Virus record (IMG/VR): IMGVR_UViG_3300008453_000627
DNA: 64,000 nt
Strand: one strand, 5' to 3'
Origin: a virus
Position numbers and translations under genes: made by a program. Shown here one piece after another: positions 6,730 to 62,854 of this stretch. The notes below the pieces were generated by a model that made no database searches, had not been told where the DNA came from, and was given only the letters and a program-made list of their open reading frames with translations. How positions within the stretch are numbered: the stretch's first letter is position 1; each line of letters opens with the position of its first letter.

Positions 6730-7005
6730 ATGCGTATAAAACCAGGAGAATCTTTTGAAAGTTGGGCAGCTCGTGTCCAACAGTATGAATACGGATATGC
6801 ACTTCAAAGTATTGCAGAAGGGCATAATATTGACGAAGTATTTGAATCGATGGCTAAAAGAATACAACAAAAACTTATGCATCCTGTTATTGTTGCTCTT
6901 AAAAACAAACCTGTTGAGTTTGATTCTGAAGCCAGCAAAAAGGCCTACAAAGAGGCCTATTTGAATAAAAATGGTCCTAAATCAGACCATGTTAGTGAAG
7001 ATTAA
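6730..7005 (+). CDS. hypothetical protein
   Basis: 91 aa, lone + strand gene with its own promoter. Confidence 0.5.
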   Translation: MRIKPGESFESWAARVQQYEYGYALQSIAEGHNIDEVFESMAKRIQQKLMHPVIVALKNKPVEFDSEASKKAYKEAYLNKNGPKSDHVSED

Positions 7006-7436
7006 TTACACCAGCTTTGTTTAGCATCACCGTAATATTCACGTGCCAGACCATTTTGAATTAGTCCTGCACGAACGCTTTGTCCGTTAACAATAATGTC
7101 GCCTAGTACACGACCTCCAAACTTGTCCCATGCATATAAGGTAACTTGAATCTTGCCGCCTTGTGAAATAAGCTGTGTAGTAAACTTGCTGGCCAACTGT
7201 GCTCGTTGGTTTTCTTGCGGGCACTGTGCTCTGTGGCCTTTCTCTGGAGTGTCGACTCCAAAGATGCGAACTGCTAACTCAGGCTTCAGCGGCGCTGGAA
7301 GAAAAGGTGCAGAGATAACAATAGTGTCACCGTCACTTACACGTAGAATCTGTGCATCGTAAGTTGCGCCTTTTGGTGTTTTCTGCGCTATAGCCAACAT
7401 TGGCACAGCCAACAATAATAATAAAAGCTTTTTCAT
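7002..7436 (-). CDS. secreted thermonuclease (staphylococcal nuclease/SNase-like)
   Basis: signal peptide MKKLLLLLLAVPMLAIA; DGDTIVISAP…RIFGVDTPEKG motifs typical of the SNase fold. Confidence 0.7.
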   Translation of the reverse strand: MKKLLLLLLAVPMLAIAQKTPKGATYDAQILRVSDGDTIVISAPFLPAPLKPELAVRIFGVDTPEKGHRAQCPQENQRAQLASKFTTQLISQGGKIQVTLYAWDKFGGRVLGDIIVNGQSVRAGLIQNGLAREYYGDAKQSWCN

Positions 7437-7465
7437 AATAGTCCTTAATAAGCTACTATTATTTA

Positions 7466-7885
7466 TTAAAAACTATTGTTAACCCAACCTACTTTTTTGC
7501 CTTCAGCAATCCGACGATCATGTTCAGAAACAGAGCTAGGATAACGCCAAGCCCAACAAGCGACAAGTCCCATAAAAATTGCGGTACTGATAACTCCAAT
7601 TGGTTTTACTCCTGTAAAGAACATGATGATTAAACTGGTAGTCATCATAGCAACCATGAAATATTTCATCTTTAACGGAAACACACGTTTCTCGCCCCAG
7701 TTAGTTAGGAATGGTCCAAACAGTTTGTGATTGTACAACCAATCGTGCATACGTTTATTGCCTTTGGCAAAGCAGTAAGCAGAAAACACAACAAAAGGAC
7801 TATAGGGGATGCCTGGTGTGACAACCCCTATATAGGCTAATCCTAAACTGAAAAATCCCAATATGTTCCAAAACAATTTTTTCAT
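7466..7885 (-). CDS. YbaN/DUF454-like inner-membrane protein
   Basis: 139 aa; GIPYSPFVVFSAYCFAKGNKRMHDWLYNHKLFGPFLTNW matches the YbaN family pattern; TM segments. Confidence 0.6.
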   Translation of the reverse strand: MKKLFWNILGFFSLGLAYIGVVTPGIPYSPFVVFSAYCFAKGNKRMHDWLYNHKLFGPFLTNWGEKRVFPLKMKYFMVAMMTTSLIIMFFTGVKPIGVISTAIFMGLVACWAWRYPSSVSEHDRRIAEGKKVGWVNNSF

Positions 7886-8397
7886 AGATTCATGTATTCC
7901 AACCAGTTATTGTGCCGCACATGTATAGGCTGCTTCTTACGCTTGTTGACCAGTTCCCAAAAGTCAGGCTTATGAGGCTTAAACTTTGGTACGATCTTCT
8001 TGTTGTTACCTTTGTTGGCGTTACATGGGCCACAGGCGCAGACTGTGTTTTCAAACGTAGTCTTACCGCCGTGACTTGTTGGTACAACGTGATCAAGTGT
8101 ACACTTGCTCTTTTCCAAATGATCACCGCAATAGGCACATTTGTAATTGTCGCGTAAAAACACATTAGATTTTGAATATCTAACAGTGGTCTTTGGCTTC
8201 ATGTATTCAGTTAGCATCATAACGCTAGGCACAGGGGTTTCCCATGAGGCGCTATGAACTATCCAACCGTCGTGCCATTCCAGTACACGGGCCTTTTCCA
8301 AGACCATGTACTTGATAGCATCTTGCCAAGTTAGTGTGCTCAAAGGCAAGAAACTAACTGGCTGTGCATCGCTGTTTAATAGTAAAGTGTCGCTCAT
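7882..8397 (-). CDS. HNH endonuclease
   Basis: CAYCGDHL…LDHVVP…N…CACGPCNANKG (HNH and Zn-binding motifs). Confidence 0.75.
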   Translation of the reverse strand: MSDTLLLNSDAQPVSFLPLSTLTWQDAIKYMVLEKARVLEWHDGWIVHSASWETPVPSVMMLTEYMKPKTTVRYSKSNVFLRDNYKCAYCGDHLEKSKCTLDHVVPTSHGGKTTFENTVCACGPCNANKGNNKKIVPKFKPHKPDFWELVNKRKKQPIHVRHNNWLEYMNL

Positions 8398-8450
8398 GAT
8401 TATACTTCTGAGTTTCGTTTATAATATGCTATTATAAACTCAAAAAGTAT

Positions 8451-9002
8451 TTATGCCAAGAGGTTTTGAGCGAATTCTGATCCGGCTAACTCAATAGACT
8501 CAGTCCATTGTGCCTGTGTTTGATAACCAAATACTATCTCGGGATTAGATGTAGCAGTTAACCAACTTTGATTGCGATCATAAGGAGGGTGGCCTTCTAG
8601 TTCGCCAGCTAACTGTCCTTTAGTCCAACCGCATAGTCCTACAAATATTCTCCATTTTAAAGGAGTGTAACCCATAGCCATTTTAGTTAATATTTCTTGG
8701 CTGGAACTAATACTAAAGTGTTTATTAATACACATCGTATTATCGCATACCCAATCATTAGTATGCAACATTGTTAATGCTTTTGCATTAACTGGTCCTC
8801 CAATATGTACCATACCTGGTAAATCTAAAATAGCATTGTTTTGTCTAGCAAATTCTTTAATTGACACTTGGCTTGGCTTGTTTAAAACAAGTCCAACACT
8901 TCCGTTGTTGTGATGTTCTGTTAACAGAACAACTGTCTTTTGAAAAAAGTTTCCCTTTACGCTGGGAGGAGCAATTAATAAGTTTCCTACTAAGTTTTTC
9001 AT
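8451..9002 (-). CDS. AlgH/YqgE (UPF0301) family protein
   Basis: MKNLVGNLLIAPPSVKGNFFQKTVVLLTEHHNNGSVGLVLNKP is the signature N-terminus of YqgE/AlgH. Confidence 0.65.
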   Translation of the reverse strand: MKNLVGNLLIAPPSVKGNFFQKTVVLLTEHHNNGSVGLVLNKPSQVSIKEFARQNNAILDLPGMVHIGGPVNAKALTMLHTNDWVCDNTMCINKHFSISSSQEILTKMAMGYTPLKWRIFVGLCGWTKGQLAGELEGHPPYDRNQSWLTATSNPEIVFGYQTQAQWTESIELAGSEFAQNLLA

Positions 9003-10408
9003 GCAAAGATTGTGCCGCCGATTTGTGTTCCGCCGTCTGCTTTAAGTTTATGTAAATATCCAATTGTTGTTCCAGGGCCGTATGCTCTTGGATCTGCCGC
9101 AGTAAATCTATATATATCCTTAGGAGCACTAGGTAGTATATTAATGGCTCCGTCTACAATCATACCAAGCTTTGCCTTTGATGGTCCCTGTACATACCAC
9201 TTGCTGGGATTTCGGTCTTTTGGTGTACCAGTAACTGCTTGGAATTGATTTTCTTGGTTCAGTATATGGTTAACTGTCCTGCCGCCGCCGTAACCTTTAC
9301 GTGTTCTATTTAAAATAACAGCCATGACATAAGCACATTCTTTAGTATTATTACTTGCTTCTGCACCAGTTGCCTTAACAAGATCAGTCCATTCGTCATC
9401 AGACATATTACGCCCTAAGAACTTTTCTGCTGACTGTCTTGCTTCACCTATCTTTTCGTTATCAAGTTTTACATTTGATGTGCTAGAAGCAGCGTCTACT
9501 TCTTTATTACCTTTTCCAGGTTTAACATCTGCTTCAGTGCTTTTTGTAAGTTTAGCAACTATATCAGGTTTTGTTTTTAAAACATTATTAAGAGCTAAAA
9601 TAGTTTCGGGTCCTGGATCACCGTCAACTGCAATACCTGCAGCCTTTTGAAAATCTCTAATTGCTTTACTAGTTTCAGGGCCTCTAATTCCATCTACCCC
9701 GAATCTAGGTAAAGGGTAGCCTAGTGCAACTAAAGCCTTTTGCATGTCTGCTACTGCTGGCCCTCTGTTCTTATTAGGAAGAACAACCGCAAACTGAGTA
9801 TCTGTTGGCTTGCCGCCGACAGGAGGAGTTTCAGGTCTTGTTGTTGAAGATCCGAATATTCTTCGAGTTTCGTCAGCAGCTTTCCTATAAACACCAAATT
9901 GATAATGTATACCATCGTTCTGCATTGGACTTCCGTCGTAGTCAATGACTTTAACACCTACTGCACTTTTAAGTGCATCTCGAACTTCTTTTTGGAAATC
10001 CCCAGCATAGTATTTTGTTTTCTTGTTATCGCCGCTAGGAAACAACATAAACACAATGTTAGCCACGCCTTGCGCTTTGACAGCGTTAACAACATTCATT
10101 ACATCACCTACAATTTTACTTGCAGGAGGTAATTTTATTTTACCTTGACTAGTAAGGTTTTGCTTTACTACATCAGCTGTATCGTTAGCACCAACAGAAA
10201 TTAACACGTTGGCACCTTTAGGGATTTTAACAATGTTTGCCAACATTTCACGGCCTACACCTCTGCCATGTGCGGCTGCTCCGTTGACTGCTAAATTGCG
10301 AGCACCATCTAACCCTGCTGTTGTTCCTACACCTCTTGCATGACTATCACCTACTGTGTAGAAATCATCAGTTTTGGCTTCTGTTAGTTTGAATTCGTTA
10401 AATCTCAT
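8999..10408 (-). CDS. multidomain cell-wall hydrolase (GDSL/SGNH-like N-term + PG_binding_1 + SleB-like hydrolase C-term)
   Basis: N-term FYTVGDSHARG; central PGPETSKAIRDFQKAAGIAVDGDPGPETILALNN peptidoglycan-binding repeat; C-term NTKECAYVMAVILNRTRKGYGGGRTVNHILNQENQFQAV resembles SleB/Hydrolase_2. Confidence 0.55.
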   Translation of the reverse strand: MRFNEFKLTEAKTDDFYTVGDSHARGVGTTAGLDGARNLAVNGAAAHGRGVGREMLANIVKIPKGANVLISVGANDTADVVKQNLTSQGKIKLPPASKIVGDVMNVVNAVKAQGVANIVFMLFPSGDNKKTKYYAGDFQKEVRDALKSAVGVKVIDYDGSPMQNDGIHYQFGVYRKAADETRRIFGSSTTRPETPPVGGKPTDTQFAVVLPNKNRGPAVADMQKALVALGYPLPRFGVDGIRGPETSKAIRDFQKAAGIAVDGDPGPETILALNNVLKTKPDIVAKLTKSTEADVKPGKGNKEVDAASSTSNVKLDNEKIGEARQSAEKFLGRNMSDDEWTDLVKATGAEASNNTKECAYVMAVILNRTRKGYGGGRTVNHILNQENQFQAVTGTPKDRNPSKWYVQGPSKAKLGMIVDGAINILPSAPKDIYRFTAADPRAYGPGTTIGYLHKLKADGGTQIGGTIFA

Positions 10409-10686
10409 TTACGTGTGCCCCAATCAGGAATCTTACCGCCGTATTTCTTTCCCTTGACTTTATGTCCGCCCATAGTCATGCGACTCTCTGGGTCTTTGCC
10501 CATCAAATGACTTTTATTACCTTCTCTAGCACGTAGTCCCTGGCTTTTGCAGCTGGCAAGGTTACTAGCACCTAGTTCTTTATTAGATTTAGCACTATTA
10601 CACAATGCTCTGCTGGCTTTTTCGTCAATAGCACTTAGTTCTTCTTGGGTTACGAATTCGTCGATTTTCATAAGAGTATTTATCAA
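10405..10686 (-). CDS. hypothetical protein
   Basis: 93 aa, start/stop overlaps with flanking genes. Confidence 0.4.
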   Translation of the reverse strand: MINTLMKIDEFVTQEELSAIDEKASRALCNSAKSNKELGASNLASCKSQGLRAREGNKSHLMGKDPESRMTMGGHKVKGKKYGGKIPDWGTRK

Positions 10687-11510
10687 GCTTCTAAGTCAAT
10701 CCATTCGTAAACGTTAAGCCACTGACGTTTGCCCACAGTTTCTTTTAAGTGTTTTAGATTAGCACAGGTGTTTTGGCGCCAGCGTTGTTTTTCGCTATCA
10801 GGCACTTCTATAGTGCGTATTTCTACACCTTCTTGTTCTGCAATATATTCAGCAATGTCTAAAAAGCTGTGCGGTAATCCTGAACCGCAGTTCCAAATGC
10901 CGCTGCCTACTACGGTATTCATAAAATCTGTATGCAAACGGCAAACATCACCTACCCATGTCCAGTCACGTTTAACATGCTCTGCATTTTCCCATACTTC
11001 TATGTAGCCCTCTTTGCGGGCTTGTTGGCGCCATTTGTAAATAGCATTAGCACGCCTGCCGCGAATGTGCATCCATTTACCGTATACATTAAAGTAACGG
11101 AATCCCTGTACTAGTATTGCAGGTTTCTGTTGGAACACCCAGCGATCGAATAGATACTTGCTCCATGCATAGGCTGTCTGCGGATGGCAAGGTGCATACT
11201 CACTAAAGTCTTTAGTATTGCCATAGACACTGCTAGAACTTGCATACTGTAGATGTACACCGTTTTCATTACATTCTTTAAACAATCGTTGACTAAATTC
11301 AAAGTTTTGATGCAGTACTTTATCTACATCTGTTTCAGTCATGTCGGCAATCGCACCCAAATGTATTACCCATTTATAACTTCTTACATCTGGAAAATCA
11401 CTATCTCCCCATTCCCAACCGTCTACATGATAACCTTGTTGGTGTAACCAACTCATCATGTTTCTGCCGATAAAACCTTCATGACCTGTTACTAGCACTC
11501 TCATAATCAC
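10683..11510 (-). CDS. hldD: ADP-L-glycero-D-manno-heptose-6-epimerase (HldD/RfaD)-like NAD-dependent epimerase
   Basis: VLVTGHEGFIGRN Rossmann motif; YASSSSVYG, YAWSKYLFDRWV, GFRYFNVYG, KRDWTWVGDV closely parallel E. coli HldD blocks (YASSAATYG / YGYSKFLFDEYV / GFRYFNVYG / KRDFVYVGDV, recalled from memory). Confidence 0.7.
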   Translation of the reverse strand: MIMRVLVTGHEGFIGRNMMSWLHQQGYHVDGWEWGDSDFPDVRSYKWVIHLGAIADMTETDVDKVLHQNFEFSQRLFKECNENGVHLQYASSSSVYGNTKDFSEYAPCHPQTAYAWSKYLFDRWVFQQKPAILVQGFRYFNVYGKWMHIRGRRANAIYKWRQQARKEGYIEVWENAEHVKRDWTWVGDVCRLHTDFMNTVVGSGIWNCGSGLPHSFLDIAEYIAEQEGVEIRTIEVPDSEKQRWRQNTCANLKHLKETVGKRQWLNVYEWIDLEA

Positions 11511-11588
11511 CTCGCTTAGGTATTTACGCTTTTATTTTTAAGGCAATAAAAAAGCCCCTTGCGGGGCTTTGACTTGAACTAGCTATTA

Positions 11589-19412: not shown

Positions 19413-19998
19413 AGATACCAGCTGATAAAAATGTTCTTCTTATGTTTTCAATCATTTCAGATGATTCTTCAATTGTTGTTATTTTGTTTATCTTGTTCTT
19501 AAACATAGATGCAATAGTAAATGCTCTAAAATTATCTCTAAAAACAGATTCGCTTAATAAGGTTAATTCTTTCCTAGCAAATTCTTCAGTCATTTCAGTT
19601 AACTCGGCATATTCTTCTAATGCTCTACTATTAGATAATGCGTGTTGAATATAAATCTCGTCTCCGTGATTAAATCCAATTTTATTACTTAACAAATACG
19701 TTCTTTGTTGTTTGAGCAGTTCTTCATAGCAGGGTTTACGGACTCTGACTAATTTCATTTTTTCTTTTAGAACACTAAAGTTTTTTAAGCTTACGACTTT
19801 AGGCTTTCCTAGATCTAAAAATATTCCCATTTCTACGCCATTGTCTAGTTGTTCTTTTATAAAAGCAGCTACACCATTATTTTCAAACGTTTTTATATAT
19901 CCGTCTATAAAACCAGACCGGAGGTTGTTTAACAAATAAACATCCTCCGATACAGCTACAATACATTTAGAAATGTGATCTTGTAGATAGTACAACAT
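19405..19998 (-). CDS. hypothetical protein
   Basis: 197 aa. Confidence 0.5.
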   Translation of the reverse strand: MLYYLQDHISKCIVAVSEDVYLLNNLRSGFIDGYIKTFENNGVAAFIKEQLDNGVEMGIFLDLGKPKVVSLKNFSVLKEKMKLVRVRKPCYEELLKQQRTYLLSNKIGFNHGDEIYIQHALSNSRALEEYAELTEMTEEFARKELTLLSESVFRDNFRAFTIASMFKNKINKITTIEESSEMIENIRRTFLSAGIYD

Positions 19999-20906
19999 TA
20001 TTTTTTATTAGATAATTTTTCTGGCCAATATTTCACCCAACGATCAAAAGTCTCGTTAGTTTCTTTTAGACTTAGATTGGCAGCAGGACAAAAATCTCTG
20101 TCGTATAAATTTTGTAGTTTAGGACCAGCTGCCGCTGAAGCTTTGGTAAAAATTTCATGTAATTCTTTAACTATGTTAGGATCTACATCTTTTCTAACAT
20201 ACATAGCGTAAGTTCCGATCATTCCTGCAGATCCTTTAAATCCTTGACTGTTGAACGATTTCATGTTTTTATAATCTTTAGTACCAGAGCTACCAATTAC
20301 ATTTAGTTTTCCTACTTCAACATGTTGCATTGCTTCGGCAGGTAGTTCAACATTGAGATCTAATCTACCAGCTAGTACTTCTAATGTTCCGGGAACAGTT
20401 CCTGCTGGAAAAGGAACAATGTCAACTTGAACACCGGGCAACATTATTTGTAATTCTCTAGCCATTGCTTCAGTTATACTACCTAAGTTGGCTCCAATAG
20501 TCAAACGTTCCTGTTTTCTAAGTTCGTCTAGAGTTTTGTATTTAGAACTTACTATTAGATAAGGCTGTCCTGAACATTCAATGAACGCAGGCTTAAAATC
20601 TTCTACTCTATGACTCTCATTTGGATAGTATACAGGTCTAGAGAAAAAGCTACTAGAGCTTGTTAAGATAGCCAAGCTGTTATGCTCTTGCACATGTCTT
20701 GCAGCCACGAAGCCGCCGGCTCCTGGTTTATTTTCCAATATGAATTTGTATTTTGTCTGTTGTTGGTTAGCTTCAGCTATGATCACTCTTACAAAGTTAG
20801 CTTGATTAGACCCAACTGAGAATGGCCAAACGATTGGAACTACCTGACTAGATGCAAATGCTGTTGATGCAAATAGCATCATAAAAATACTTAAAAGTTT
20901 TTTCAA
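19998..20906 (-). CDS. TctC/Bug-family periplasmic solute-binding protein
   Basis: signal peptide MKKLLSIFMMLFASTAFA; ENKPGAGGFVAARHV motif typical of tripartite tricarboxylate transporter receptor (UPF0065/Bug) proteins. Confidence 0.65.
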   Translation of the reverse strand: MKKLLSIFMMLFASTAFASSQVVPIVWPFSVGSNQANFVRVIIAEANQQQTKYKFILENKPGAGGFVAARHVQEHNSLAILTSSSSFFSRPVYYPNESHRVEDFKPAFIECSGQPYLIVSSKYKTLDELRKQERLTIGANLGSITEAMARELQIMLPGVQVDIVPFPAGTVPGTLEVLAGRLDLNVELPAEAMQHVEVGKLNVIGSSGTKDYKNMKSFNSQGFKGSAGMIGTYAMYVRKDVDPNIVKELHEIFTKASAAAGPKLQNLYDRDFCPAANLSLKETNETFDRWVKYWPEKLSNKK

Positions 20907-21238: not shown

Positions 21239-21514
21239 TTATGTTTCTTTTAATTTAAATTTAATGTCTTTGTGTTTAACTATGATAAACAACAATACTT
21301 TACCGTCCACTTGCATAGGCAAGTCCAAATGAATTGTTACTTCAGGACCGTCGATATCGTTGATCTTACGGTCATTACCTACAGTACCTACAAAAGGTAT
21401 TTTCTTGTAGTAACCAAACACTCGATCACCCATATCCCAAACAGGTTTATGTCTATTATTATTAAAATAATCTGCTAATGAAGGCATAATATTATTTAGT
21501 AACGTTGAACTCAT
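21239..21514 (-). CDS. hypothetical protein
   Basis: 91 aa. Confidence 0.45.
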   Translation of the reverse strand: MSSTLLNNIMPSLADYFNNNRHKPVWDMGDRVFGYYKKIPFVGTVGNDRKINDIDGPEVTIHLDLPMQVDGKVLLFIIVKHKDIKFKLKET

Positions 21515-22346
21515 TTACAGTAAATGTTCCCTTGCCAGAAAATGCCTCCATACCAAGTTGCATGGAGTGCAGATAATAAGTCGAAGGGAGTAAGTTTCTT
21601 GTAATGATGTAATCGAAAAACGGCTTTAAAGGAATAGATCCTTTGAAATATCTATTTTGAGATACAAAAGCCAAACTAACCAGTCGTTGTCCGTTTACAC
21701 TTGATTCCCAAAACTCTACCCAATAGGTATTACCGTTAACTACGATTGTATCGTATAAGTTTTGTGGGCTGTTGCTCAACGGATGCAAGTTAATACCCAT
21801 TTCAACTAACGGAGCACGATCCATAAACTTAGTTGAACTAGGATCTACTGCAAAGCTATAGAATGTTTGAGTGTATCCAGAATAGTTAACTTCTACATCA
21901 TGATGGACTGTGGCATTACCAATCTGTGCAATGTTAATAGGATCAAGGGATTTAGTGCCCATCCAGGAATGGGGATTGCTAAATCCTGCATCTGGAGTAT
22001 AGGTAACATTGGTGTAGGATCTTACAGCATCGCTACCTGGAGTAGTAGGCCATTCAATATCAAAGACAGCTTTAATACCTGTAGTTGTTAGACTGGCAGA
22101 CTTAATGCACGTAGTCCAATCTAACAAAGATTGTTTATTCCAAGTATTAGTTGAAGCAGTATAGTTACCTAGAGTTTTAGTGTAGTCGTTACCGCTCCAT
22201 GGATTAGGAACGTTTTTTGTTGCACATCCGCTAACTACTTCAGGCAATACGACTACTGGCGCACTTTCTGCAACTGGCGCACCTCCGCCTCCTCCGCCGC
22301 ATCCTGCTAACAGCAGAACAGATAATAAAATGCCAGTGTACTTCAT
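21492..22346 (-). CDS. lipoprotein with Gly-rich linker
   Basis: MKYTGILLSVLLLAGCGGGGGGAP…. Confidence 0.55.
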   Translation of the reverse strand: MKYTGILLSVLLLAGCGGGGGGAPVAESAPVVVLPEVVSGCATKNVPNPWSGNDYTKTLGNYTASTNTWNKQSLLDWTTCIKSASLTTTGIKAVFDIEWPTTPGSDAVRSYTNVTYTPDAGFSNPHSWMGTKSLDPINIAQIGNATVHHDVEVNYSGYTQTFYSFAVDPSSTKFMDRAPLVEMGINLHPLSNSPQNLYDTIVVNGNTYWVEFWESSVNGQRLVSLAFVSQNRYFKGSIPLKPFFDYIITRNLLPSTYYLHSMQLGMEAFSGKGTFTVNEFNVTK

Positions 22347-23195: not shown

Positions 23196-24020
23196 TTACT
23201 TACCAACGTTTACATTAGTGCCTGCACCAATCACCAAAGTGTTACCCTTGAATGTTGCAATAGCCTTAGCTGTCTCAAGAGCCGCATCGGCTTGCTTCAT
23301 ACGAGCCTGTGCATCCATGTACTGAATAGCGCCTGCGTTTTGTGCAAGAGCCGCAATTCGTCGGGCTTCTGCTTCGGCAGTCTTAACTTCAATTTCTTTC
23401 TGCTTGAGTTCATTCTTTGAACGAACCAATTCGTTAGCACTTGCTACAACTGAATCAGCAGGGACTACGTTACGAATCAACACTTGGCTGATAGTGATAC
23501 TACCGTCCAACTTTTCTTCAGCAAGATTTCGAATAACTTCTTCTTTGATAAAGTTCTCCATATCGCTACGATTGTCAGCCATATCCAATGCCTCGTACTT
23601 ACGAGCTGCCTTGTAGATAGCGTTACGAGAATTTTGAACAATGTAGTTATACATTACGTAGGTATCGCCTTTGAACTCAGCGTGGAAACTCTTGTTCTTA
23701 GTTGAATACAATTCGGACACTTGTTGTGGATTAATGTTATAAACAACTACAGCATCAAAGTCCTTCATTGTGCTGTTATCTTTGGCAACCGGAGTCATAT
23801 TCTCCAATGTTACATTGACATCCTTGATCGGAAAAGTCAATACATCGCCGATCAATACTTGATTGAACGAGCCAGGCAGCAACTCACCTGATTGAACTTG
23901 TTTGTCAAAGCCAACTCGAACTCCAACCTCACCAGTCTCAATTCGAGTACAAGCAGAAGTCAATGCAACTGCGCCAATAATCAAACTCAATTTAACAATA
24001 CGATTCATGTGTAACCTCAA
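23196..24020 (-). CDS. SPFH/band-7 (stomatin/prohibitin-like) lipoprotein
   Basis: lipobox LTSAC; ETGEVGVRVGF…SPFH-type N-domain; C-terminal Ala/Glu-rich coiled coil (KQKEIEVKTAEAEARRIAALAQNAG). Confidence 0.7.
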   Translation of the reverse strand: MRLHMNRIVKLSLIIGAVALTSACTRIETGEVGVRVGFDKQVQSGELLPGSFNQVLIGDVLTFPIKDVNVTLENMTPVAKDNSTMKDFDAVVVYNINPQQVSELYSTKNKSFHAEFKGDTYVMYNYIVQNSRNAIYKAARKYEALDMADNRSDMENFIKEEVIRNLAEEKLDGSITISQVLIRNVVPADSVVASANELVRSKNELKQKEIEVKTAEAEARRIAALAQNAGAIQYMDAQARMKQADAALETAKAIATFKGNTLVIGAGTNVNVGK

Positions 24021-24196: not shown

Positions 24197-25213
24197 TTAG
24201 CCTTTAGTTGGAAAGGGCCATGCCGCTGAGTGAGCCGATGCTACAAAGGTTGGTCTAACGGGCTTTGGCTCATAACGATAGCGTTCTGGAGTACCGTCTT
24301 CTCGATCTTGTGTACCAGCATCAAATCCATCTTCATACGCAGTAGTTTCACGGTAGCCAAAATATTCGCTGTCGTTAAATCCTTTGTCATAGAAGCCATC
24401 ACTGTAGCCTTTGCTGAACGGACCGTGATTAACCTTGGGTTCTGGAGCAGGTGCTCGAACAGTTTCAGTACCATTGGCGTTGCCCTGAACTGAACGATCA
24501 AAAGCCTTACTCGGTTCTACACCCAACTCACCGATAACTTCATAGCGGCAAGCACGGCCTTTAGCACCACTGTAGTCACTTGGGATTGAAACAACATCGG
24601 CCGGATCAATCTTGACAATAACAGTTCGACTGTCACTGCTACCAAAGTGATCCAAATAGCTCATACCGCAGAAGTGCAGACCAGTTGAGCAAGTTTGATC
24701 CTTGTTGTCATCAACTTTGTAGCGTTCCATTTCCACAACAGTACCTGGAGCATTGTTCATAGTACCTGAATGGATATCCAAAAAGTCTTTGCGGACTTTC
24801 TTGTAGGCCAAGAAGTGACCATCTGGAGTGATTGGTAAGTTGTTCTTTTCCAAGAAGCCATAGAGTTCGTCCACTGAACGCTTACTAGGGTTCTTCAACA
24901 GGTTGTGCATGAACAACGCCATTGGCTCAATGCTGAAGCCTTCTTCCAACATGGAGATCATACGTGTAGCCATAACGCCTGCAAAGGGTTCACCTTTCCA
25001 GTAGAGCGTATCACCTTTGATACTGATATTGCCCTGACCGTAGTTTAGAACAACCTTAACTGGATCGATAATGTTTTTAACAGTATCCCAATCGTTGTCT
25101 ATAATGGCGTCAACTACCTTTTGATAACTGACATGTGTTTTGGCCACAGTGTGCGGTTTGCTGTCAATGACCACTGTGACATTGCTGCCTTGAATAATAT
25201 ACGGATAACTCAT
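24197..25213 (-). CDS. rIIB: rIIB protein
   Basis: long colinear match to T4 rIIB (recalled from memory): …DGHFLAYKKVRKDFLDIHSGTMNNAPGTVVEMERYKVDDNKDQTCSTGLHFCGMSYLDHFGSSDSRTVIVKIDPADVVSIPSDY… vs T4 …DGYFYAWKVVRSNYFDCHSNTFDNSPGKVVKMPRTRVNDDDTQTCSRGLHVCSKSYIRHFGSS…. Confidence 0.9.
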   Translation of the reverse strand: MSYPYIIQGSNVTVVIDSKPHTVAKTHVSYQKVVDAIIDNDWDTVKNIIDPVKVVLNYGQGNISIKGDTLYWKGEPFAGVMATRMISMLEEGFSIEPMALFMHNLLKNPSKRSVDELYGFLEKNNLPITPDGHFLAYKKVRKDFLDIHSGTMNNAPGTVVEMERYKVDDNKDQTCSTGLHFCGMSYLDHFGSSDSRTVIVKIDPADVVSIPSDYSGAKGRACRYEVIGELGVEPSKAFDRSVQGNANGTETVRAPAPEPKVNHGPFSKGYSDGFYDKGFNDSEYFGYRETTAYEDGFDAGTQDREDGTPERYRYEPKPVRPTFVASAHSAAWPFPTKG

Positions 25214-25214: not shown

Positions 25215-27392
25215 TTAGATTCCCTTTTTTGAATCGATAAGATTTACATACTCAGCGATATCGCTCGCTTCAACGCGGTAAGTGCTCAGGTTGTTCAACA
25301 AAGGATACCTACGGACCACTTCGTTAAGTTGTTGTTGATATTTTACAGTCAGCGCATCTGGGCTAAGGTTAGCGTTTGGTGCAAACTTGCGGAATAAGTT
25401 TTTCATATTATACTGGTTACCAGTAAACTTGTCAACACCTTTAAACTCCAAAATCATCTTAGTGTATGGGCTGTTGGCATCAATTTTATCCACTACACCT
25501 TTTGGCAAGTCAAAGATATCTCTATTGTCCAAATTAGCTTTAACCAAACTCATCAACAGTTTACTTACGTCCTTGCCATTCAGCTTGGCTGCAATGTGAT
25601 CCTCAAAGTTAATCCAATTCTTCATCTTCTTAACTTCTTCAATGTCAGCTTTACGAACACCGTAGATAGTGCCATTGAACAGGCCCGGCATGCTGTTTAC
25701 ATCATCGTAGAGTTCTTTGCCGCTAGTATAACCTTTGGCACTGAGCATTTGGAATCCGCTCAATGGCACATAGTAATGGGTTACGGCAGGATCAAAAGCA
25801 CCTGCTTTACCGGCATCACGCCAAACCATATCTTCATCTGTGCGACGATAGTTGTAACCACCTTGACTACGCTTCTCCAACTTGAGAATACTCACGTTGC
25901 GACCCAAAGTTTCACGTTCACGTTGCTTCAATGTACTTGCGGCAAAGCGTCGAGCAGTAGGAGGTTCTTGGATACCGGCAAAGAATGCCTTAGTATCCAT
26001 GTCTTTGGTCTTGTCAGCCTTTTCCAGAATCCAAATAACACGACTGTAAACATCGCAACCAGTTTCCTTGTAGTGATAACGAGCACGTTCACTTGCACCG
26101 GTCTTCAAGTCGTTAATAACAAAATGACTGTCGGCATCGACGCCTACATGCCATTCTTGCCAAGTGATATAATGTCCGTTGGCATCTTTAGCATGATTCG
26201 GAGCATACTCAGTATGACTCTTGTTGTTACTGACAACTTTACTACCACGGCTCTGTCGCAGTTGTTTGATTACAATGTTGTAAGTAGAGGCCAAGTCTTC
26301 AACTTTGAAATCAAAGCGAGCCAAACGGTTGTACTGTTTGTCATTGTAAGTAGGCAGGGCAGTGTCTGTAGCATACTTGGCCACAGCCGCAGTCCAAAGG
26401 CGATGCTCTTTCTTCTTGTACAAGAACACAGCACGATCCCAAAGGTTCTCAATAGCATCTGCTTCCTTAGCAAGGACCAATGTCAGTGCGGCATTGACCT
26501 GCTCCAACTTTCGGTTAATGGCTGCAACGGTTGACGGAATGTAGCTAAGACCTTCGCGGCTTGCTTGGAAGTCCAATTCGCCAATATCAAAGTGCATTTC
26601 CAAACCACAACTCAACAATGCTCTCAACTCAGGATTGATAGATTGATCAGCGGCTGGTACATCAATCGGGTAAGCAATATTGCCCATAACGGCTGCACTA
26701 CTACTGCTAGTCTTGAAACTATGCACACCGGGAACAATGTCTCGGCTTTCATATTCAGCATCAACAAAACTAAAGTCTCCGTTGCCCGAAACAACTGGAC
26801 GGAGTGCAAAGTGTTTGTACACAATGCGGGCCTCTTGACGGAACTTGTCAAAGTCGTAGCGACTGGTAACTGCAAACTTAACTTCAACACCTGCTGGTTC
26901 GTCAGTAGCTTCTTCCATCATCTGTGCAATGCTGGGCACACCGGCTTCGTTAATGAAAGCAGTGTAGATACCTTTGCGGCCGTTTTGGATAGCAGTTACA
27001 GTGAAGTTATCAGTGTAGCTAAAAGGAGACTTAGAACCAAGACCAAGAGCGCCGATGAAGGCGTTGCTATTAGTCTTAGTACTTTCAAAGTAGGTTGTAT
27101 AAATGTTGGTAACTTGTTCATGTGAAAGTCCAGTGCCATAGTCACGAATACTGAAGTGCGGTTCCAATGTGTTAGGCAAATGCACATCAAACGGTGTAGT
27201 GGCATTGCCAGCTGCCGCATGACTGTCCACAGCGTTGCAACTGAGTTCTCGGATCACTGCTCGGATCTTGTTGGCATACAAGCCCGATGAAAGAATGGAA
27301 AATGCTTTGGCTGAGTTGCGAATACGGAACTCGCCAATCTTGCCGACGTTAGAAACAATAGCTTCGTTAGCAGGAGCATTGTTGAGGATCAT
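25215..27392 (-). CDS. rIIA: rIIA protein
   Basis: 725 aa (the length I recall for T4 rIIA); N-terminus KAFSILSSGLYANKIRAVIRELSCNAVDSH parallels T4 rIIA [31 protein letters not shown]; directly upstream of rIIB as in T4. Confidence 0.9.
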   Translation of the reverse strand: MILNNAPANEAIVSNVGKIGEFRIRNSAKAFSILSSGLYANKIRAVIRELSCNAVDSHAAAGNATTPFDVHLPNTLEPHFSIRDYGTGLSHEQVTNIYTTYFESTKTNSNAFIGALGLGSKSPFSYTDNFTVTAIQNGRKGIYTAFINEAGVPSIAQMMEEATDEPAGVEVKFAVTSRYDFDKFRQEARIVYKHFALRPVVSGNGDFSFVDAEYESRDIVPGVHSFKTSSSSAAVMGNIAYPIDVPAADQSINPELRALLSCGLEMHFDIGELDFQASREGLSYIPSTVAAINRKLEQVNAALTLVLAKEADAIENLWDRAVFLYKKKEHRLWTAAVAKYATDTALPTYNDKQYNRLARFDFKVEDLASTYNIVIKQLRQSRGSKVVSNNKSHTEYAPNHAKDANGHYITWQEWHVGVDADSHFVINDLKTGASERARYHYKETGCDVYSRVIWILEKADKTKDMDTKAFFAGIQEPPTARRFAASTLKQRERETLGRNVSILKLEKRSQGGYNYRRTDEDMVWRDAGKAGAFDPAVTHYYVPLSGFQMLSAKGYTSGKELYDDVNSMPGLFNGTIYGVRKADIEEVKKMKNWINFEDHIAAKLNGKDVSKLLMSLVKANLDNRDIFDLPKGVVDKIDANSPYTKMILEFKGVDKFTGNQYNMKNLFRKFAPNANLSPDALTVKYQQQLNEVVRRYPLLNNLSTYRVEASDIAEYVNLIDSKKGI

Positions 27393-27467: not shown

Positions 27468-27914
27468 TTAACCAAAACTGAACATTCCGTTGCCAAATGT
27501 TTCCACTTCTTTAAATGTATAATCATATGTTAATGCATTATGTTGTACAATGTTTTTTTCAACAATTGGCCTAAGATGCTCTTGTCCGCACAACAATCTT
27601 TCACGGCATAGATCCACGTTATCCTGCATCATATCAACACCAAAGATGGAGCTCAGGGCTTGCTCAAATGTTGAACCATTTTCAATCTTTCTAATCAATA
27701 CTTCGCTAAGAAACTGTCCGTCACCGCAACTGTTATCTATAAAAGATTTATTTGGATCTGTAAACACTTCTTGCGGGAACTCGTCCAATATAACCATAAC
27801 CAATTTAGTAGGAGTAAACACTTCTTGAGTAGCTTTCACTCGAAGTTTGTTACGATCTACTCCGCTCATATACTCACGGTTACGACAGTGTGCAATTACT
27901 TGTTCTAAAGTCAT
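27468..27914 (-). CDS. MTase-like protein carrying only the AdoMet-binding half (motifs X, I, II; no catalytic motif IV)
   Basis: EVFTPTKLV (motif X FxTP) … DNSCGDGQFL (motif I) … IFGVDMMQDNVDL (motif II-like); ends before any (D/N)PPY; ATGA-coupled to the upstream MTase gene. Confidence 0.55.
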   Translation of the reverse strand: MTLEQVIAHCRNREYMSGVDRNKLRVKATQEVFTPTKLVMVILDEFPQEVFTDPNKSFIDNSCGDGQFLSEVLIRKIENGSTFEQALSSIFGVDMMQDNVDLCRERLLCGQEHLRPIVEKNIVQHNALTYDYTFKEVETFGNGMFSFG

Positions 27915-29002
27915 TTGAATGAGTCCTCAATTGTTTTGATTTGTTTCTTTGTCAAGTTAAAGATTTTGTAAAGATCCTGATCTGTAAAAGTCTTGTCAAT
28001 AACAATCTTTGGAACCCAAGTAATTTGCGGATTGTCAAGAGTTGTGCTAGTTCTAGTTCTCTGTAAAATCCAAGAGACTAGTTTACTATGCCAAAAGCTT
28101 TTATACCAAATTAGTGCTTGCTCTGCTTCTGCTTGTGTAGCAAACTCAGCAAAGACTCTATAACCTGTTTGACTTTTATAGTTAGGCTCCATAACTTTGA
28201 GTTGATTCAAAGGAATGATTTCAAAGTTTTCTTTACGATACGAAGTCATAATTCGCCAAGCATTTGTATTGCCTTTGCCGCCTCCGTGAGTTTTCCAAGG
28301 AGTAGTTGGCTTGAGCTTGTGCAGAATACTCAACTCGTCAGGATTGACAGTATACAAAATTGTTTTGTCAAAATCTAAAATATCAGTTTTATAGCCTGTG
28401 TCGCTGTCAATTAGTTCAATTTTACCGACATGACCTTTTCTACAAAAAACTGTGCAGGTTTTAACTTTGGCAGTTTCAAATGTATCATAGGGATTAATTA
28501 CAATTTTGTAAACACCTAGTTTCTTTAAACTGGCTCGCACACTCTTACCTAACTTGTTGTCAGGTTGTGTAAACCAATTTGCTTGAATAACAAAGAATGT
28601 AAATTCGGGAGGATTCGTTGCAAACTGCTCTAAGAATAATTGATAGATTGGATTTCGGCCGGCTGACCCATCATTGTAAGGAGGGTTACCAACTGCAATG
28701 TTTACATTCATAGTAAGTTGATCTGCCAAGGCTTGTACTTGATACTTGCCTTTTAATTTTCTTTTATTTATTGCATAATCTACTGCTATAGAATCTTCTT
28801 CAAATCCTCTTACTCGTTTGGCAATGTCTTTGTCCTTCACACCAAGTTTAGACATACGTTGTTCAATTGCACTGACAATTTGACCTCCAGCAATAGCAGG
28901 ATCATGAATAGTAACTGTTGGATCTATTAGCATGTTAACTGGAATCTCATTGGTTATTAGTTCTGTAATAAAGTGCATACCAAACTTCAATCGATCTCTC
29001 AT
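27911..29002 (-). CDS. N6-adenine (amino) DNA methyltransferase, gamma-class TaqI-like, with degenerate AdoMet-binding motif
   Basis: NIAVGNPPYNDGSAGRNPIYQLFLEQF (motif IV NPPY plus downstream block similar to M.TaqI GNPPYGIVGEASKYPIHVF); N-terminal IHDPAIAGGQIV looks like a decayed motif I. Confidence 0.65.
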   Translation of the reverse strand: MRDRLKFGMHFITELITNEIPVNMLIDPTVTIHDPAIAGGQIVSAIEQRMSKLGVKDKDIAKRVRGFEEDSIAVDYAINKRKLKGKYQVQALADQLTMNVNIAVGNPPYNDGSAGRNPIYQLFLEQFATNPPEFTFFVIQANWFTQPDNKLGKSVRASLKKLGVYKIVINPYDTFETAKVKTCTVFCRKGHVGKIELIDSDTGYKTDILDFDKTILYTVNPDELSILHKLKPTTPWKTHGGGKGNTNAWRIMTSYRKENFEIIPLNQLKVMEPNYKSQTGYRVFAEFATQAEAEQALIWYKSFWHSKLVSWILQRTRTSTTLDNPQITWVPKIVIDKTFTDQDLYKIFNLTKKQIKTIEDSFK

Positions 29003-31236
29003 GACTTGTCTTTCTCTAAGAGACGTACCATATTTGTGTTGATAATGTTGCGCTCAAAAAGATCATTGATAATCTCAAAGTCAATTCCAAAGTGCTTTCT
29101 CACTTCTTGTTGTTTGATTTTGTCTTTGCTGATCTTCTCAATTGCTTCTTGTATTGTAACAGAATTCGAGCCGTATGTCAAGATGTCAAGATTCTCAACC
29201 AAAGTGGTAATCATCTTTTTGGCTTCGGCTAGCGTTTTGATAGGTGCAGTTGCCTTTGATGTTGATCCATTAGAGGAAGCTTGTCCATTTCTAGTTTTAC
29301 CAACTGCGGCCGCGGCTGTTTTGGCAGCTTTGTAGACATCAGCATTGCCAGCAGCCAGTGCTTGGATTTCGGCTGCTGTCAATTTGGATAGGTCACTGAT
29401 CTTACCAATTACACGACTTAACCGTCCGTTTTCGATTAGTTGTTCAAGATACTCATCTCTAAAGATTTTGACAGAGCCATCCGCAGTGCATCGGAAGATG
29501 TCCAAAGTTTTAAGAACTTCTGCAAGAGCTTGCCTAATATCTTTGTCATGTCGCTTTTGATAGTTCTCAGCTGTGATTAATACTAGGTCGTCAAACTTGT
29601 CATCCCTGTTAGGGTCAAAGCTAAGACTAACAATGCGTCCAATTTTGCTTTCGGTATGCGGAGTAAGTGCTCTGCTGATCTTTTGGATAGTAGCTCCTGC
29701 ATCACCTGCATCATAAGCCAAATACAATTCTGTAATCTCTCCAACTGAGAAACTACGTTGTGCCATACCTGCACTTAGAATAAGAACATTTTGATTGTTG
29801 CGTTTGGCTTTATCAATTTCTTCTTTGACTTTAGATTCTGCTGTACGATTTTCCATTTCATCGCCAGACACTGTGACAATGCTGTAACCTTTTAGCGCAT
29901 CTTTAGCCATTTTACTAACTGTAGCAAGATCACCGTTGGCAATGCCCATGCTTCCAGGAAGGAACATCATAGCAACACGTTGATCAGGTACTTCATTAGT
30001 CTGTAGATCAATATTCAAATTGTCTAGTCCGTGCTTCCCTTCAAAGACTGACTGTAAGATGTTAACCCAAAGACCTTTAGCTTTAATAGGCTTGGCTGCA
30101 AATTTACTCCAGCTGGCCAGCTCTTCTCTGTTGAGGTTTGGATTTTGTTCTAGTGTTAGATCAACAGCGGATTTCAAATCCATCTGATACAATTCAATAT
30201 CAACAACTAAGTTATGTCGCTTAGGGTCTACTTTAAAATGCTTTAGTCTAGTAGCAGTGTCTTTGCTTTTAAGTTTCTTTTCAATAACTAGTTCTGGATA
30301 CGTTACGCTCAAGAAGTGATCAGGCACCCAAGTGCTGACTGCCTTGTCACTGTTAGTGCCAGTCATAAGAAACAGTACATCGTCCAGATCTATTGCATTT
30401 TGCAAAGGCAATACTTGTCCTTGTTGATGAACTCCATAGTCTGCTTCATCAACAATGATCAATCGTTGTTGTGTCTGTGCAAACAAAAAGTCGATCTTTT
30501 CCTGGCGGCGGCCGCCGGCACACATACTTAAAAAGGCAACCACTTGTTTGTTTTGAGCAAGTGCCGAAGACACTACTTCTTGATAGTCTGGATCAGCAGT
30601 ATCGATAAGCACGTAGTCTTTAAACTGTTCAAATCCACTTAGGTCTTTTTCAAAGCTTGTAAAGCTAGTTAGCACATAGCTGACAACCACTGTGAGTTTG
30701 ATTTCAGTTTCTTTGATCAAGACCCCTGAAAAGATTGTCTTTCCAAAACGAGCGCACAGTTCAGCTAAGAATATGCGGTCTCCCAATTTAATTTTATCTA
30801 AGGTCTCTTCAGCTGCCGATGCTTGATTCCGTGTCAAGCCAACAAGAGGCAAAGGTTGATCAGACTTCTTTAGAAAACTGTCAACTCGTAGCTTAACTTC
30901 ACTAGCCGACAGTTCATGGATTTCTCCAGTGCTGCCTTTTCTAAAACCAATGTATGGTCTAATATAGTCATCCATACGACTACGTTGGTAATATCGATTT
31001 ACCTTCTTAGCTAGTTCTGTTACATCCCAAATAGTTACTAATTGGATAGTACCGTCTGAGATCAAATCTTTCCTAACGCCTAAAGAACTTTTAATGCGTT
31101 TCCAAACTTCTTTCTCAGGATCTTGGTCGCTAAAGACCCAACGCTCTCCAAACTTGCACTCGTCAGGCTTGTCTTTTTCATACCAAAGGTAGCAGTACAT
31201 GCGATCCATTTTATTCTCCTGACTCTTCTTGTTCAA
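28999..31236 (-). CDS. SF2 helicase-like ATPase (Walker A LCARFGKT, DEAD box IIVDEADYG) with an uncharacterised ~150-aa N-terminal domain
   Basis: 745 aa; motif I AELCARFGKT, motif II VDEAD, TGT motif III-like; N-terminal YCYLWYEKDK…DDYIRPYIGF…GEIHELSASEVK could be a nuclease-type domain. Confidence 0.55.
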   Translation of the reverse strand: MNKKSQENKMDRMYCYLWYEKDKPDECKFGERWVFSDQDPEKEVWKRIKSSLGVRKDLISDGTIQLVTIWDVTELAKKVNRYYQRSRMDDYIRPYIGFRKGSTGEIHELSASEVKLRVDSFLKKSDQPLPLVGLTRNQASAAEETLDKIKLGDRIFLAELCARFGKTIFSGVLIKETEIKLTVVVSYVLTSFTSFEKDLSGFEQFKDYVLIDTADPDYQEVVSSALAQNKQVVAFLSMCAGGRRQEKIDFLFAQTQQRLIIVDEADYGVHQQGQVLPLQNAIDLDDVLFLMTGTNSDKAVSTWVPDHFLSVTYPELVIEKKLKSKDTATRLKHFKVDPKRHNLVVDIELYQMDLKSAVDLTLEQNPNLNREELASWSKFAAKPIKAKGLWVNILQSVFEGKHGLDNLNIDLQTNEVPDQRVAMMFLPGSMGIANGDLATVSKMAKDALKGYSIVTVSGDEMENRTAESKVKEEIDKAKRNNQNVLILSAGMAQRSFSVGEITELYLAYDAGDAGATIQKISRALTPHTESKIGRIVSLSFDPNRDDKFDDLVLITAENYQKRHDKDIRQALAEVLKTLDIFRCTADGSVKIFRDEYLEQLIENGRLSRVIGKISDLSKLTAAEIQALAAGNADVYKAAKTAAAAVGKTRNGQASSNGSTSKATAPIKTLAEAKKMITTLVENLDILTYGSNSVTIQEAIEKISKDKIKQQEVRKHFGIDFEIINDLFERNIINTNMVRLLEKDKS

Positions 31237-62098: not shown

Positions 62099-62854
62099 TT
62101 ACATTCTTTCAATGTCTTCTTCAACACATATTTCGCCATGTTGAACTTCTAAAATGTGACAAGGTTCAGAAAAATGGTTAAATCCTCGATGCCATACTGA
62201 CTGTCCTATAACGTAGCTATGATTTTGTTTAATAGTATCAATGATAGATTCGTCATGTCTTAATATTTCTACTTGACAGTTGCCTTTTAACACATACCAA
62301 TGTTCAGCTCGGTTAAAATGGCGTTGCATACTCAAGCTTTTTCCAGGTTCTATTACTAATTCCTTAACTTTACATCCTTTTAGGTCATGTAACGTCTTAT
62401 AGTAGCCCCAAGGTCGAATTGTAGTCGGGGCTTGCCATTCTTTTAAGATCCAACTGCTTGAATTTTTCTTATCTTCGCCGCCTACGCCAAACGCAAAACT
62501 TAAACGAGGATCTTGTACCTGCATTTCTGGAATATTTCCTTCAGTTCTATCTCCGCCGTTGGCAAAAATAATCTCATCGTTAGGAAATAACTCTAAAGTT
62601 TCTTTGATAAATGTTCCGCAGCCGTTATCTGGGTCATCAGCTACCATTACGGTCATGTCGACCATTTTTAAATTTCTAATAATTGCATCACGTTCCCAAA
62701 TAGGCAAAAAAGGCCTGCCTTTTTTACGGGCAAGCCATGAGTCTGAGTTAAGGCCTACAATTAGTTTGTCACCTAACTTTTTTGCTGATTCAAAATATGC
62801 AATATGGCCAGAATGTATGGGATCAAACCCTCCGGTGACTAATACTATCTTCAT
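62099..62854 (-). CDS. HldE-domain-II-like nucleotidyltransferase (heptose-1-P adenylyltransferase-like) fused to a C-terminal cupin domain
   Basis: MKIVLVTGGFDPIHSGHIAYFESAKKLGDKLIVGLNSD…ANGGD parallels E. coli HldE C-domain ([30 protein letters not shown]…ANGGE, from memory); C-terminal WGYYKTL…MQRHFNRAEHWYVLKG cupin. Confidence 0.65.
   Translation of the reverse strand: MKIVLVTGGFDPIHSGHIAYFESAKKLGDKLIVGLNSDSWLARKKGRPFLPIWERDAIIRNLKMVDMTVMVADDPDNGCGTFIKETLELFPNDEIIFANGGDRTEGNIPEMQVQDPRLSFAFGVGGEDKKNSSSWILKEWQAPTTIRPWGYYKTLHDLKGCKVKELVIEPGKSLSMQRHFNRAEHWYVLKGNCQVEILRHDESIIDTIKQNHSYVIGQSVWHRGFNHFSEPCHILEVQHGEICVEEDIERM

Follow-up and report, generated by a model that had tools for sequence, protein, structure and literature searches.

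We analysed three sugar-related genes in a 64,000-nucleotide stretch of DNA (the window) from the IMG/VR virus record IMGVR_UViG_3300008453_000627: a gene for an HldD-like epimerase, a gene fusing a nucleotidyltransferase (NT) domain to a cupin domain, and a gene for a predicted O-carbamoyltransferase. A first-pass annotation had read the epimerase and the NT as consecutive steps in the synthesis of an activated heptose. All three open reading frames (ORFs) lie where that annotation had placed them, all on the minus strand (Table 1), with 42 kb between epimerase and carbamoyltransferase and 8 kb between carbamoyltransferase and fusion. The family similarities of the three products are far above chance.

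The window has a G+C content of 40.9%. Among its products are tail-fibre and virion proteins, rIIA, UvsX, UvsY, helicases, a primase and PstS, and it also carries three tRNA genes. When two segments of the window were compared with GenBank phages by megablast, there were zero matches, so the phage has no close cultured relative among them. Its replicative helicase is closest to that of Pseudomonas jumbo phage PA5oct (55% identity), with 47% identity to that of Agrobacterium phage Atu_ph07. Contigs carrying an identical fusion protein in the same surrounding gene order originate from freshwater metagenomes, and those of diverged relatives measure 265-383 kb. From these observations and the gene content, we therefore conclude that the source is an aquatic jumbo myovirus, as yet uncultured, whose replication genes are of T4 type. 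Relatives were sampled at 80 epimerase loci (IMG/VR, 70-80% epimerase identity), 96 viral fusion loci and 80 carbamoyltransferase loci, with flanks of up to 10 kb around the genes.

Table 1. Features of the three genes and of the epimerase flanks (aa, amino acids; SDR, short-chain dehydrogenase/reductase)
Feature	Position	Strand	Basis
HldD-family extended-SDR sugar-nucleotide epimerase, 275 aa	10683..11510	-	profiles, PDB matches, alignment
Intrinsic-terminator-like hairpin AAAGCCCCGCAAGGGGCTTTTTT	11548..11570	-	just 5' of the epimerase; read directly from the sequence
ORF of 93 aa, no Pfam match	10405..10686	-	overlaps the epimerase stop codon
O-carbamoyltransferase, TobZ/NovN/GdmN/NodU family, 489 aa	52843..54312	-	Pfam, PDB and PHROG matches
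NT-cupin fusion, 251 aa	62099..62854	-	profile matches
N-terminal NT domain (residues 1 to ~140), HIGH/GCT superfamily, type B	62435..62854	-	motifs GGFDPIHSGH, NGGDR, NIPE, GVGGEDKKNSSSWIL
C-terminal cupin domain (residues 144-251), type-II phosphomannose-isomerase-like	62099..62425	-	RPWG; metal motif Q177-x-H179...E184...H222

The epimerase falls in the NAD-dependent epimerase/dehydratase family of Pfam. Among NCBIfam models TIGR02197 (heptose_epim) ranks first (E 2.7e-55, 187.7 bits), about 40 orders of magnitude ahead of other families (galE is next, 5e-14), and the top four PDB matches (1eq2, 2x6t, 4ej0 and 3sxp; 9e-32 to 5e-16) are all HldD, the next family following at 3e-12. The protein is thus HldD-like by profile and by structure match. 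The GFRYFNVYG and KRDWTWVGDV blocks on which the annotation had relied are genuine, and both align with E. coli HldD, as do GHEGFIG, YASSSSVYG and YAWSK. At ~30-34% identity, the two enzymes share the GxxGxxG motif, the triad S116, Y140 and K144, N169 (in FRYFNVYG) and R209-D210 (in KRD). In contrast to the E. coli enzyme, ~30 residues of the NADP-binding lobe are deleted in the window epimerase, and Lys178, which serves E. coli HldD as the second catalytic base in a two-base mechanism, is replaced by Arg. The HldD-type assignment consequently holds at the level of the clade but not for a canonical HldD: judged by its alignment, the protein sits within the HldD clade broadly defined, yet as a diverged, distinct paralogue, whose exact reaction is uncertain. 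The listed start codon is a GTG at 11510; because orthologues open with 'MRILVTG', the true start is likely the ATG at 11504. The hairpin upstream (Table 1) would part the epimerase from the preceding helix-turn-helix gene.

The surroundings of the epimerase in relatives are informative. A homologue of the 93-aa ORF lies 3' of the epimerase in 78 of the 80 loci, and the other two contigs end within ~1.3 kb of the epimerase. It is between these two genes that relatives insert accessory heptose genes. Eight of the 80 loci carry an inserted type-A NT (defined below), a kinase and a second HldD, three of these with a small cupin as well; the small cupin occurs alone in one further locus, and a GmhB-like phosphatase in four of the 80. 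The best NCBIfam matches of the inserted genes are rfaE_dom_II (6e-38, full length), rfaE_dom_I (4.5e-50), heptose_epim (1.7e-68) and GmhB (7.9e-42). By their predicted products, the relatives strongly support a heptose-type pathway for the epimerase locus.

Three minus-strand window proteins have similar N-termini, namely those of 8999-10408 (MRFNEFKLTE), 10405-10686 (...MKIDEFVTQE) and 1912-2181 (MRAREFVINV), and the pattern is repeated in relatives (MKAKEFLPE, MRANEFTE, MRLNEFITDE). We take N-termini of this kind to resemble the capsid-targeting sequence of T4 internal head proteins. In the 469-aa product of 8999-10408, a peptidoglycan-binding domain occurs with a weak SGNH/GDSL region and a weak match to cell-wall hydrolases, and because of this domain combination the protein may be a packaged, ejected lysin.

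Profile searches bear out the description of the second gene as a HIGH/GCT-superfamily NT joined to an isomerase-type cupin. The NT half shows the superfamily fold with its HxGH motif, and residues 2-76 of the fusion have rfaE_dom_II as their top NCBIfam match (8e-19), the runner-up models being glycerol-3-P cytidylyltransferase and archaeal PPAT (~1e-10). The likeness to HldE domain II stands as superfamily membership but not as orthology, since the match is confined to the first 75 residues and covers only profile positions 12-88 of 144, compared with positions 13-142 and 130 bits for what we call type-A phage NTs. The latter comprise the cyanophage T4-GC 304 proteins and the NTs of the relatives' cassettes, are 36-40% identical to E. 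coli HldE-II and share its motifs. Type B takes in the window protein and the fusions of SAR11 and SAR86, together with the stand-alone NTs of S-SSM7 and P-TIM68 (T4-GC 1357), which are the nearest cultured homologues of the window NT half; type-B members are 51-60% identical to one another, 22-33% identical to HldE-II, and have motifs of their own. In comparison with HldE domain II and HldC, the window NT lacks RPxN, KGGDY and STT and has instead NGGDR, NIPE and GVGGxDKKNSSSWIL; it is fused to a cupin, whereas HldE-II is fused to a PfkB kinase. The stand-alone type-B genes (S-SSM7 SSSM7_186, L264 8983-9447; P-TIM68 gp149, L265 6986-7447), whose products are 51% identical to the window NT, sit between the genes for DNA polymerase gp43 and UvsX. 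Two other assignments of the NT half were rejected: an NMN/NaMN adenylyltransferase, suggested by the 'GGFDPxHxGH' motif, scores far lower (NadD/NadR 1e-3 to 1e-6 versus 1e-17 to 1e-19 for rfaE_dom_II), and a CMP-Kdo synthetase role disagrees with family chemistry, GCT-family enzymes using phosphate acceptors.

The cupin half passes the gathering threshold of PF01050 (MannoseP_isomer) with 79.8 bits versus 23.6 (E 2.4e-22, profile positions 11-114 of 116), and 43 homologues all share its RPWG motif and Q-x-H...E...H metal ligands. A phmmer search of this half against PDB sequences gave nothing useful. Similar to AlgA, ManC and XanB (TIGR01479), which have a homologous C-terminal cupin with RPWG and QxH...E...H, the fusion places a putative sugar-phosphate isomerase and a putative sugar-1-phosphate NT in one polypeptide. 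However, the NT of those enzymes is a GT-A-like NTP_transferase, whereas that of the window has the unrelated HIGH/Rossmann-like GCT fold, and the window fusion is half their size (251 aa). Some ManC-type cupins are reported to lack phosphomannose isomerase (PMI) activity.

The fusion belongs to a large family, which counts at least 594 loci in viruses and gives over 8,000 database matches; we found no assayed member in the literature. In the window a UvsY-like gene ends where the fusion begins, stop and start codons overlapping; of the 96 viral loci, 62 have UvsY on the upstream side and 55 have UvsX there. The genes 3' of the fusion vary: a GT8-like gene follows directly in 47 loci, cl204 occurs in 41 and cl201 in 29, 20 have an FkbM methyltransferase, and the minimal arrangement, found in the window and a few relatives, is UvsY, fusion, a 389-aa ORF and a helicase. 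Outside phages, full-length homologues 45-53% identical to the window fusion are encoded by large contigs of SAR86 and Pelagibacteraceae, one of them a complete SAR86 chromosome; the SAR86 homologue borders a polysaccharide island, and the SAR11 homologue adjoins polA among housekeeping genes.

Several observations concern these fusion islands. The families cl204 (~300 aa, often two to four paralogues per island) and cl201 (~270 aa, with a WMDAD motif) recur 3' of the fusion (loci L010-L023 and L270-L349); neither has a Pfam match, profile searches against the PDB were empty, and by context both are probably novel glycosyltransferases. The GT8-like family itself gives only weak PDB matches (E 0.08-0.24). 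Apparent direct clustering of the window's three genes near the fusion (L316, L276, L337, L342) was rejected, the SDRs there being generic (24-28% identity). One locus (L199; GenBank PBPT01000016.1, 335 kb), labelled as a metagenome-assembled genome of Candidatus Neomarinimicrobiota, is a mis-binned jumbo phage akin to that of the window: its UvsX, UvsY and helicase genes follow the window's order, and its fusion is surrounded by a 12-gene glycan island.

The third gene had been described as a NodU-type carbamoyltransferase in the replication block. Family and place are right: both Pfam domains score over threshold (PF02543 and PF16861, Carbam_trans_N/C; 131.6 and 159.2 bits), phrog_1601 matches at 9e-96, and the gene is flanked by a Toprim primase-like gene (54419-55399) and a DnaB-type helicase (51379-52827), an order preserved in most relatives. 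The protein is not NodU itself, reaching 133.5 bits against the NF041651 equivalog cutoff of 1000. Its best PDB structures, NovN (3e-42), GdmN (1e-39) and TobZ (9e-33), are all O-carbamoyltransferases. Among phage enzymes, it matches the S-CAM3 cassette enzyme introduced below at 28% identity (E 1.5e-50, 170 bits). The carbamoyltransferase that turns 5-hydroxymethylcytosine (5hmC) into 5-carbamoyloxymethylcytosine on DNA and dNTPs (Yang et al. eLife 2021; PMC8670742) is likewise of phage origin and aligns over its full length with the same Carbam_trans_N/C architecture, but at 25.6% identity and 90 bits, and the window enzyme is nearer to the sugar and natural-product O-carbamoyltransferases (NovN at 148 bits, GdmN, TobZ). 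Near the carbamoyltransferase, relatives carry a small cupin in 16 of 80 loci and a KdsA-like gene in 15 of 80; that of L199 passes the NCBIfam equivalog cutoffs for Kdo-8-P synthase (334 bits versus 242). A supposed absence of the carbamoyltransferase from two near-identical contigs (L003 and L005) was discarded, the gene being intact in both and left out only of the gene table.

As the first-pass annotation had stated, the window contains no kinase, GmhA or GmhB: tblastn with E. coli and cyanophage enzymes was empty, and Pfam searches of 40 further ORFs revealed none of the three. Homologues of all the window activities are found together in a cyanomyovirus cassette, T4-GC 303-308 (P-SSM2, S-SM2, S-SSM7, S-CAM3). 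In P-SSM2 (PSSM2_308-313), S-CAM3 (gp153-148) and S-SM2 (SSM2_200-211) it consists of carbamoyltransferase, type-A NT, PfkB kinase, HAD phosphatase, small cupin and HldD-like epimerase, except that the S-SM2 stretch is without the carbamoyltransferase. The small cupin, which is homologous to the cupin of the fusion (hhalign 95.6%, E 1e-8), co-occurs with the cassette. A homologue of the SIS-type GmhA was found neither in 2.66 Mb of phage loci nor in the cyanophage cassettes. The cyanophage genes are contiguous, include a kinase and a phosphatase and lie among tail-fibre genes; those of the window, in contrast, are scattered and form no contiguous cassette, with NT and cupin fused, kinase and phosphatase missing and a type-B NT in place of T4-GC 304.

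Sullivan 2010 had already listed T4-GCs 304, 305, 307 and 308 as co-occurring putative lipopolysaccharide (LPS) genes (PMC3037559). According to Iyer 2021 (PMC7824862), jumbo phages encode epimerases, cupin isomerases, PfkB kinases, HIGH nucleotidyltransferases, glycosyltransferases and carbamoyltransferases, and Zaragoza-Solas 2020 described rfaE and GT8 genes of pelagimyophages (PMC7029224). Because the theme is present in these three papers, the suggestion that such genes are unusual for a phage is unsupported; many aquatic T4-like and jumbo phages carry the gene set. The finding stands, but such genes are commonplace in a virus of this type, being already known from ocean T4-like phages.

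Several RefSeq product names in the cassettes of S-CAM3, S-SM2 and P-SSM2 look wrong when set against the sequence motifs and matches. The ~110-aa T4-GC 306 product is called a 'phosphoheptose isomerase', yet its matches are to HAD capsule-biosynthesis phosphatases and it contains a DxDGT motif. T4-GC 307, named 'cysteine dioxygenase', encodes a PMI-like cupin, and the 138-aa NT bears the label of the bifunctional HldE kinase/adenylyltransferase. The S-CAM3 NT ORF (locus 9001-9399) is without annotation.

In sum, we favour the reading that the phage encodes a modular toolkit for making and tailoring a nucleotide-activated sugar of heptose/mannose type, of which the three genes form the conserved minimal core in a large clade of uncultured aquatic jumbo T4-like phages, and we put its probability at roughly 0.5. 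Each of the three genes has a fixed genomic slot across relatives. The slots are insertion sites for a kinase, a GmhB-like phosphatase, an HldE-II-like NT, a second HldD and a small cupin, and further hold KdsA, GT8-like transferases and methyltransferases. Because their homologues adjoin in the cyanophage cassettes and canonical heptose genes are inserted beside the epimerase in relatives, the three genes probably act in one sugar pathway. A heptose-type pathway, which had been the core of the original proposal, is plausible and finds backing at the epimerase locus, even though HldE-II orthology and a canonical HldD did not hold up; ADP-heptose specifically is less probable than the pathway as a whole.

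The proposed roles are the following: (I) the cupin half would convert a ketose phosphate (sedoheptulose-7-P or fructose-6-P) to a manno-configured aldose phosphate, taking the role of GmhA or PMI, a role we assign to it because no SIS-type GmhA was seen in any phage locus; (II) the phosphate would be moved to C1 by host enzymes for the window phage, and by a phage kinase and HAD phosphatase in relatives; (III) the NT half would convert the sugar-1-phosphate to an NDP-sugar, the first and third steps thus being fused, as in the PMI-GMP enzymes AlgA and ManC; (IV) the HldD-like SDR would epimerise, or oxidise and reduce, a side-chain carbon; and (V) the carbamoyltransferase would O-carbamoylate the sugar. 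Pseudomonas offers a precedent for an O-carbamoylated L,D-heptose: carbamoyl-heptose is a feature of its LPS core, attributed to WapO (PA5005), a putative 7-O-carbamoyltransferase of the Carbam_trans family acting on core heptose II (PMC8005017). WapO, compared here by description only, sits in a chromosomal core-oligosaccharide cluster with heptosyltransferases and kinases, whereas no such genes turned up in the phage loci. The most likely destination of the product is a cell-envelope glycan of the host, either LPS core or O-chain-like, whose modification would change the cell surface during infection.

A number of points weigh against this toolkit reading. The activities of the three proteins are predicted from family membership, and every heptose-specific profile match of the window proteins stays below its equivalog cutoff: the epimerase reaches 187.7 bits against 274.6 for TIGR02197 and 130.6 against 452 for NF008360, and the NT half 67.9 against 181.5 for rfaE_dom_II (TIGR02199). 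Arg occupies the Lys178 position in 71 of 71 window-type orthologues among the IMG/VR relatives, whereas all eight cassette-type second HldD-like paralogues retain Lys, as do the T4-GC 308 proteins of cyanophages. Window-type and canonical HldD-like paralogues occur together wherever the latter exists, and their jobs may therefore differ. By motif and identity, the NT half belongs to a separate type-B subfamily and is not an HldE-II orthologue; S-SSM7, and probably relatives too, has a canonical HldE-II-like NT alongside type B, whose substrate may consequently not be heptose-1-P. Structure cannot tell the NT half from glycerol-3-P, phosphoethanolamine or phosphonate cytidylyltransferases. There is no glycosyltransferase in the window and no heptosyltransferase (WaaC/WaaF) homologue in the related loci, and the window phage would need host enzymes for at least two steps. 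Finally, the replication/recombination module houses two of the three genes, a location that would suit a role in DNA modification too.

Among the alternatives, the one that survives best, though we consider it unlikely, is that no single pathway exists. The fusion would use a non-heptose or non-sugar phosphate (for example an NDP-mannose or an alditol- or phosphonate-type head group), the epimerase and carbamoyltransferase would tailor other host metabolites, and the joint presence of the three genes would merely reflect a general repertoire of glycan auxiliary metabolic genes. Consistent with this, the three genes are unlinked in the window, the SDRs in the fusion's islands are generic, and the type-B NT resembles HldE-II only at family level, TagD/TarD, ECT and Fom1 being equally close. 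Within 10 kb of the SAR11 and SAR86 fusion homologues there is no HldD-like, carbamoyltransferase, PfkB-type heptose-7-P kinase, GmhA or GmhB gene. Against it, the epimerase homologue clusters with the type-A NT and small cupin in three cyanophage genomes, in all but the S-SM2 stretch with the carbamoyltransferase too. Moreover, all three genes are conserved together in the window's clade: a 266-kb contig has carbamoyltransferase and epimerase 43 kb apart, as in the window, and fusion and carbamoyltransferase remain syntenic, ~9-10 kb apart, in diverged relatives. The cupin of the fusion is also specifically PMI-like.

Glycosylation of the virion appears more doubtful still. The sugar nucleotide, possibly carbamoylated, would here decorate the capsid, the tail fibres or packaged proteins, altering adsorption or shielding the particle. 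The epimerase does lead a transcription unit with the two proteins that start MKIDEFVTQE and MRFNEFKLTE, whose presumed capsid-targeting resemblance was described above, and tail-fibre and virion structural genes border the cyanophage cassette; as to precedent, a passage of one paper (PMC12619734) cites virion glycosylation in mycobacteriophages. However, the lack of a glycosyltransferase in the window counts against this reading as well, fusion and carbamoyltransferase lie among replication genes and not structural ones, and the SAR11 and SAR86 fusion homologues are cellular genes.

Lastly, carbamoyltransferase and NT-cupin fusion could modify phage DNA in step with replication, placing a sugar and/or carbamoyl group on a modified base (carbamoylated 5-hydroxymethylpyrimidines or an unusual sugar) as a shield from host nucleases, with the glycosyltransferase and methyltransferase islands by UvsX/UvsY taking part. 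The domain architecture shared with the 5hmC enzyme, the conserved replication/recombination slots of the two genes, the overlap of the fusion start with the uvsY stop and the glycosyltransferase islands of relatives are all in keeping with it, and in T4 gene 42 and β-gt lie between gene 43 and uvsX, the slot of the type-B NT in S-SSM7 and P-TIM68. Position, however, does not discriminate between the readings, since the T4 superinfection-exclusion genes imm and sp also lie inside the replication cluster. The known 5hmC-type carbamoyltransferase genes adjoin ThyA-like hydroxymethylases, within ~3 kb (Yang et al. 2021; PMC8670742); the window and the flanks of the 80 related carbamoyltransferase loci contain no such hydroxymethylase, and a wider search, covering the window and 3.67 Mb of sequence surrounding these genes in 261 related loci, gave no homologue of ThyA, gp42, ThyX, MazG or β-gt. 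With no ThyA-like gene nearby, with scores nearer to the S-CAM3 cassette enzyme and NovN than to the 5hmC enzyme, and with island genes (GT8-like, FkbM methyltransferases, SDRs, KdsA) typical of polysaccharide synthesis, we regard a DNA role as very unlikely; if true, the donor would be made by a previously uncharacterised NT-cupin family also found in SAR11 and SAR86.

If the toolkit reading is true, the three window genes (NT-cupin fusion, HldD-like SDR and O-carbamoyltransferase) are what remains when a modular phage glycan toolkit is pared to its essentials, a core that hundreds of aquatic jumbo and T4-like phages would enlarge at fixed genomic hot spots. The fusion may replace PMI or GmhA plus a pyrophosphorylase. 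Current views are not overturned by these findings.

Other parts of the window deserve brief mention. A run of small accessory genes at 7002-9002 encodes a staphylococcal-nuclease-like protein (7002-7436), a DUF454 membrane protein (7466-7885), an HNH endonuclease (7882-8397) and an AlgH-like DUF179 protein (8451-9002, 6e-35). A lipoprotein-like protein with a weak GH12 domain (21492-22346), an SPFH/Band-7 protein (23196-24020) and an rIIA homologue (25215-27392; phrog_612, 3e-129) are grouped together, and a 338-aa gene 3' of rIIA (24197-25213) has no family match. Three overlapping minus-strand genes at 27468-31236 (148, 363 and 745 aa) give only faint methyltransferase-like matches (AprA MT2-like 4e-3, Eco57I methylase 1e-3) and could be a DNA methyltransferase or helicase module. 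At 33365-36455 and 41599-43597 the longest ORFs overlap on both strands and their translations are of low complexity or rich in Leu and Cys; these may be non-coding or RNA-gene regions. Three clustered tRNAs (Leu-TAA, Arg-TCT and Met-CAT; 44928-45216) sit within a ~13-kb plus-strand block (~36.6-49.2 kb) of many small ORFs with zero family matches. Finally, a PstS-like phosphate-binding protein (34184-35188; PBP_like_2, 2e-32) and a TctC-like tricarboxylate receptor (19998-20906; 6e-12), both with signal-peptide-like N-termini, are probably encoded by auxiliary genes for nutrient uptake.

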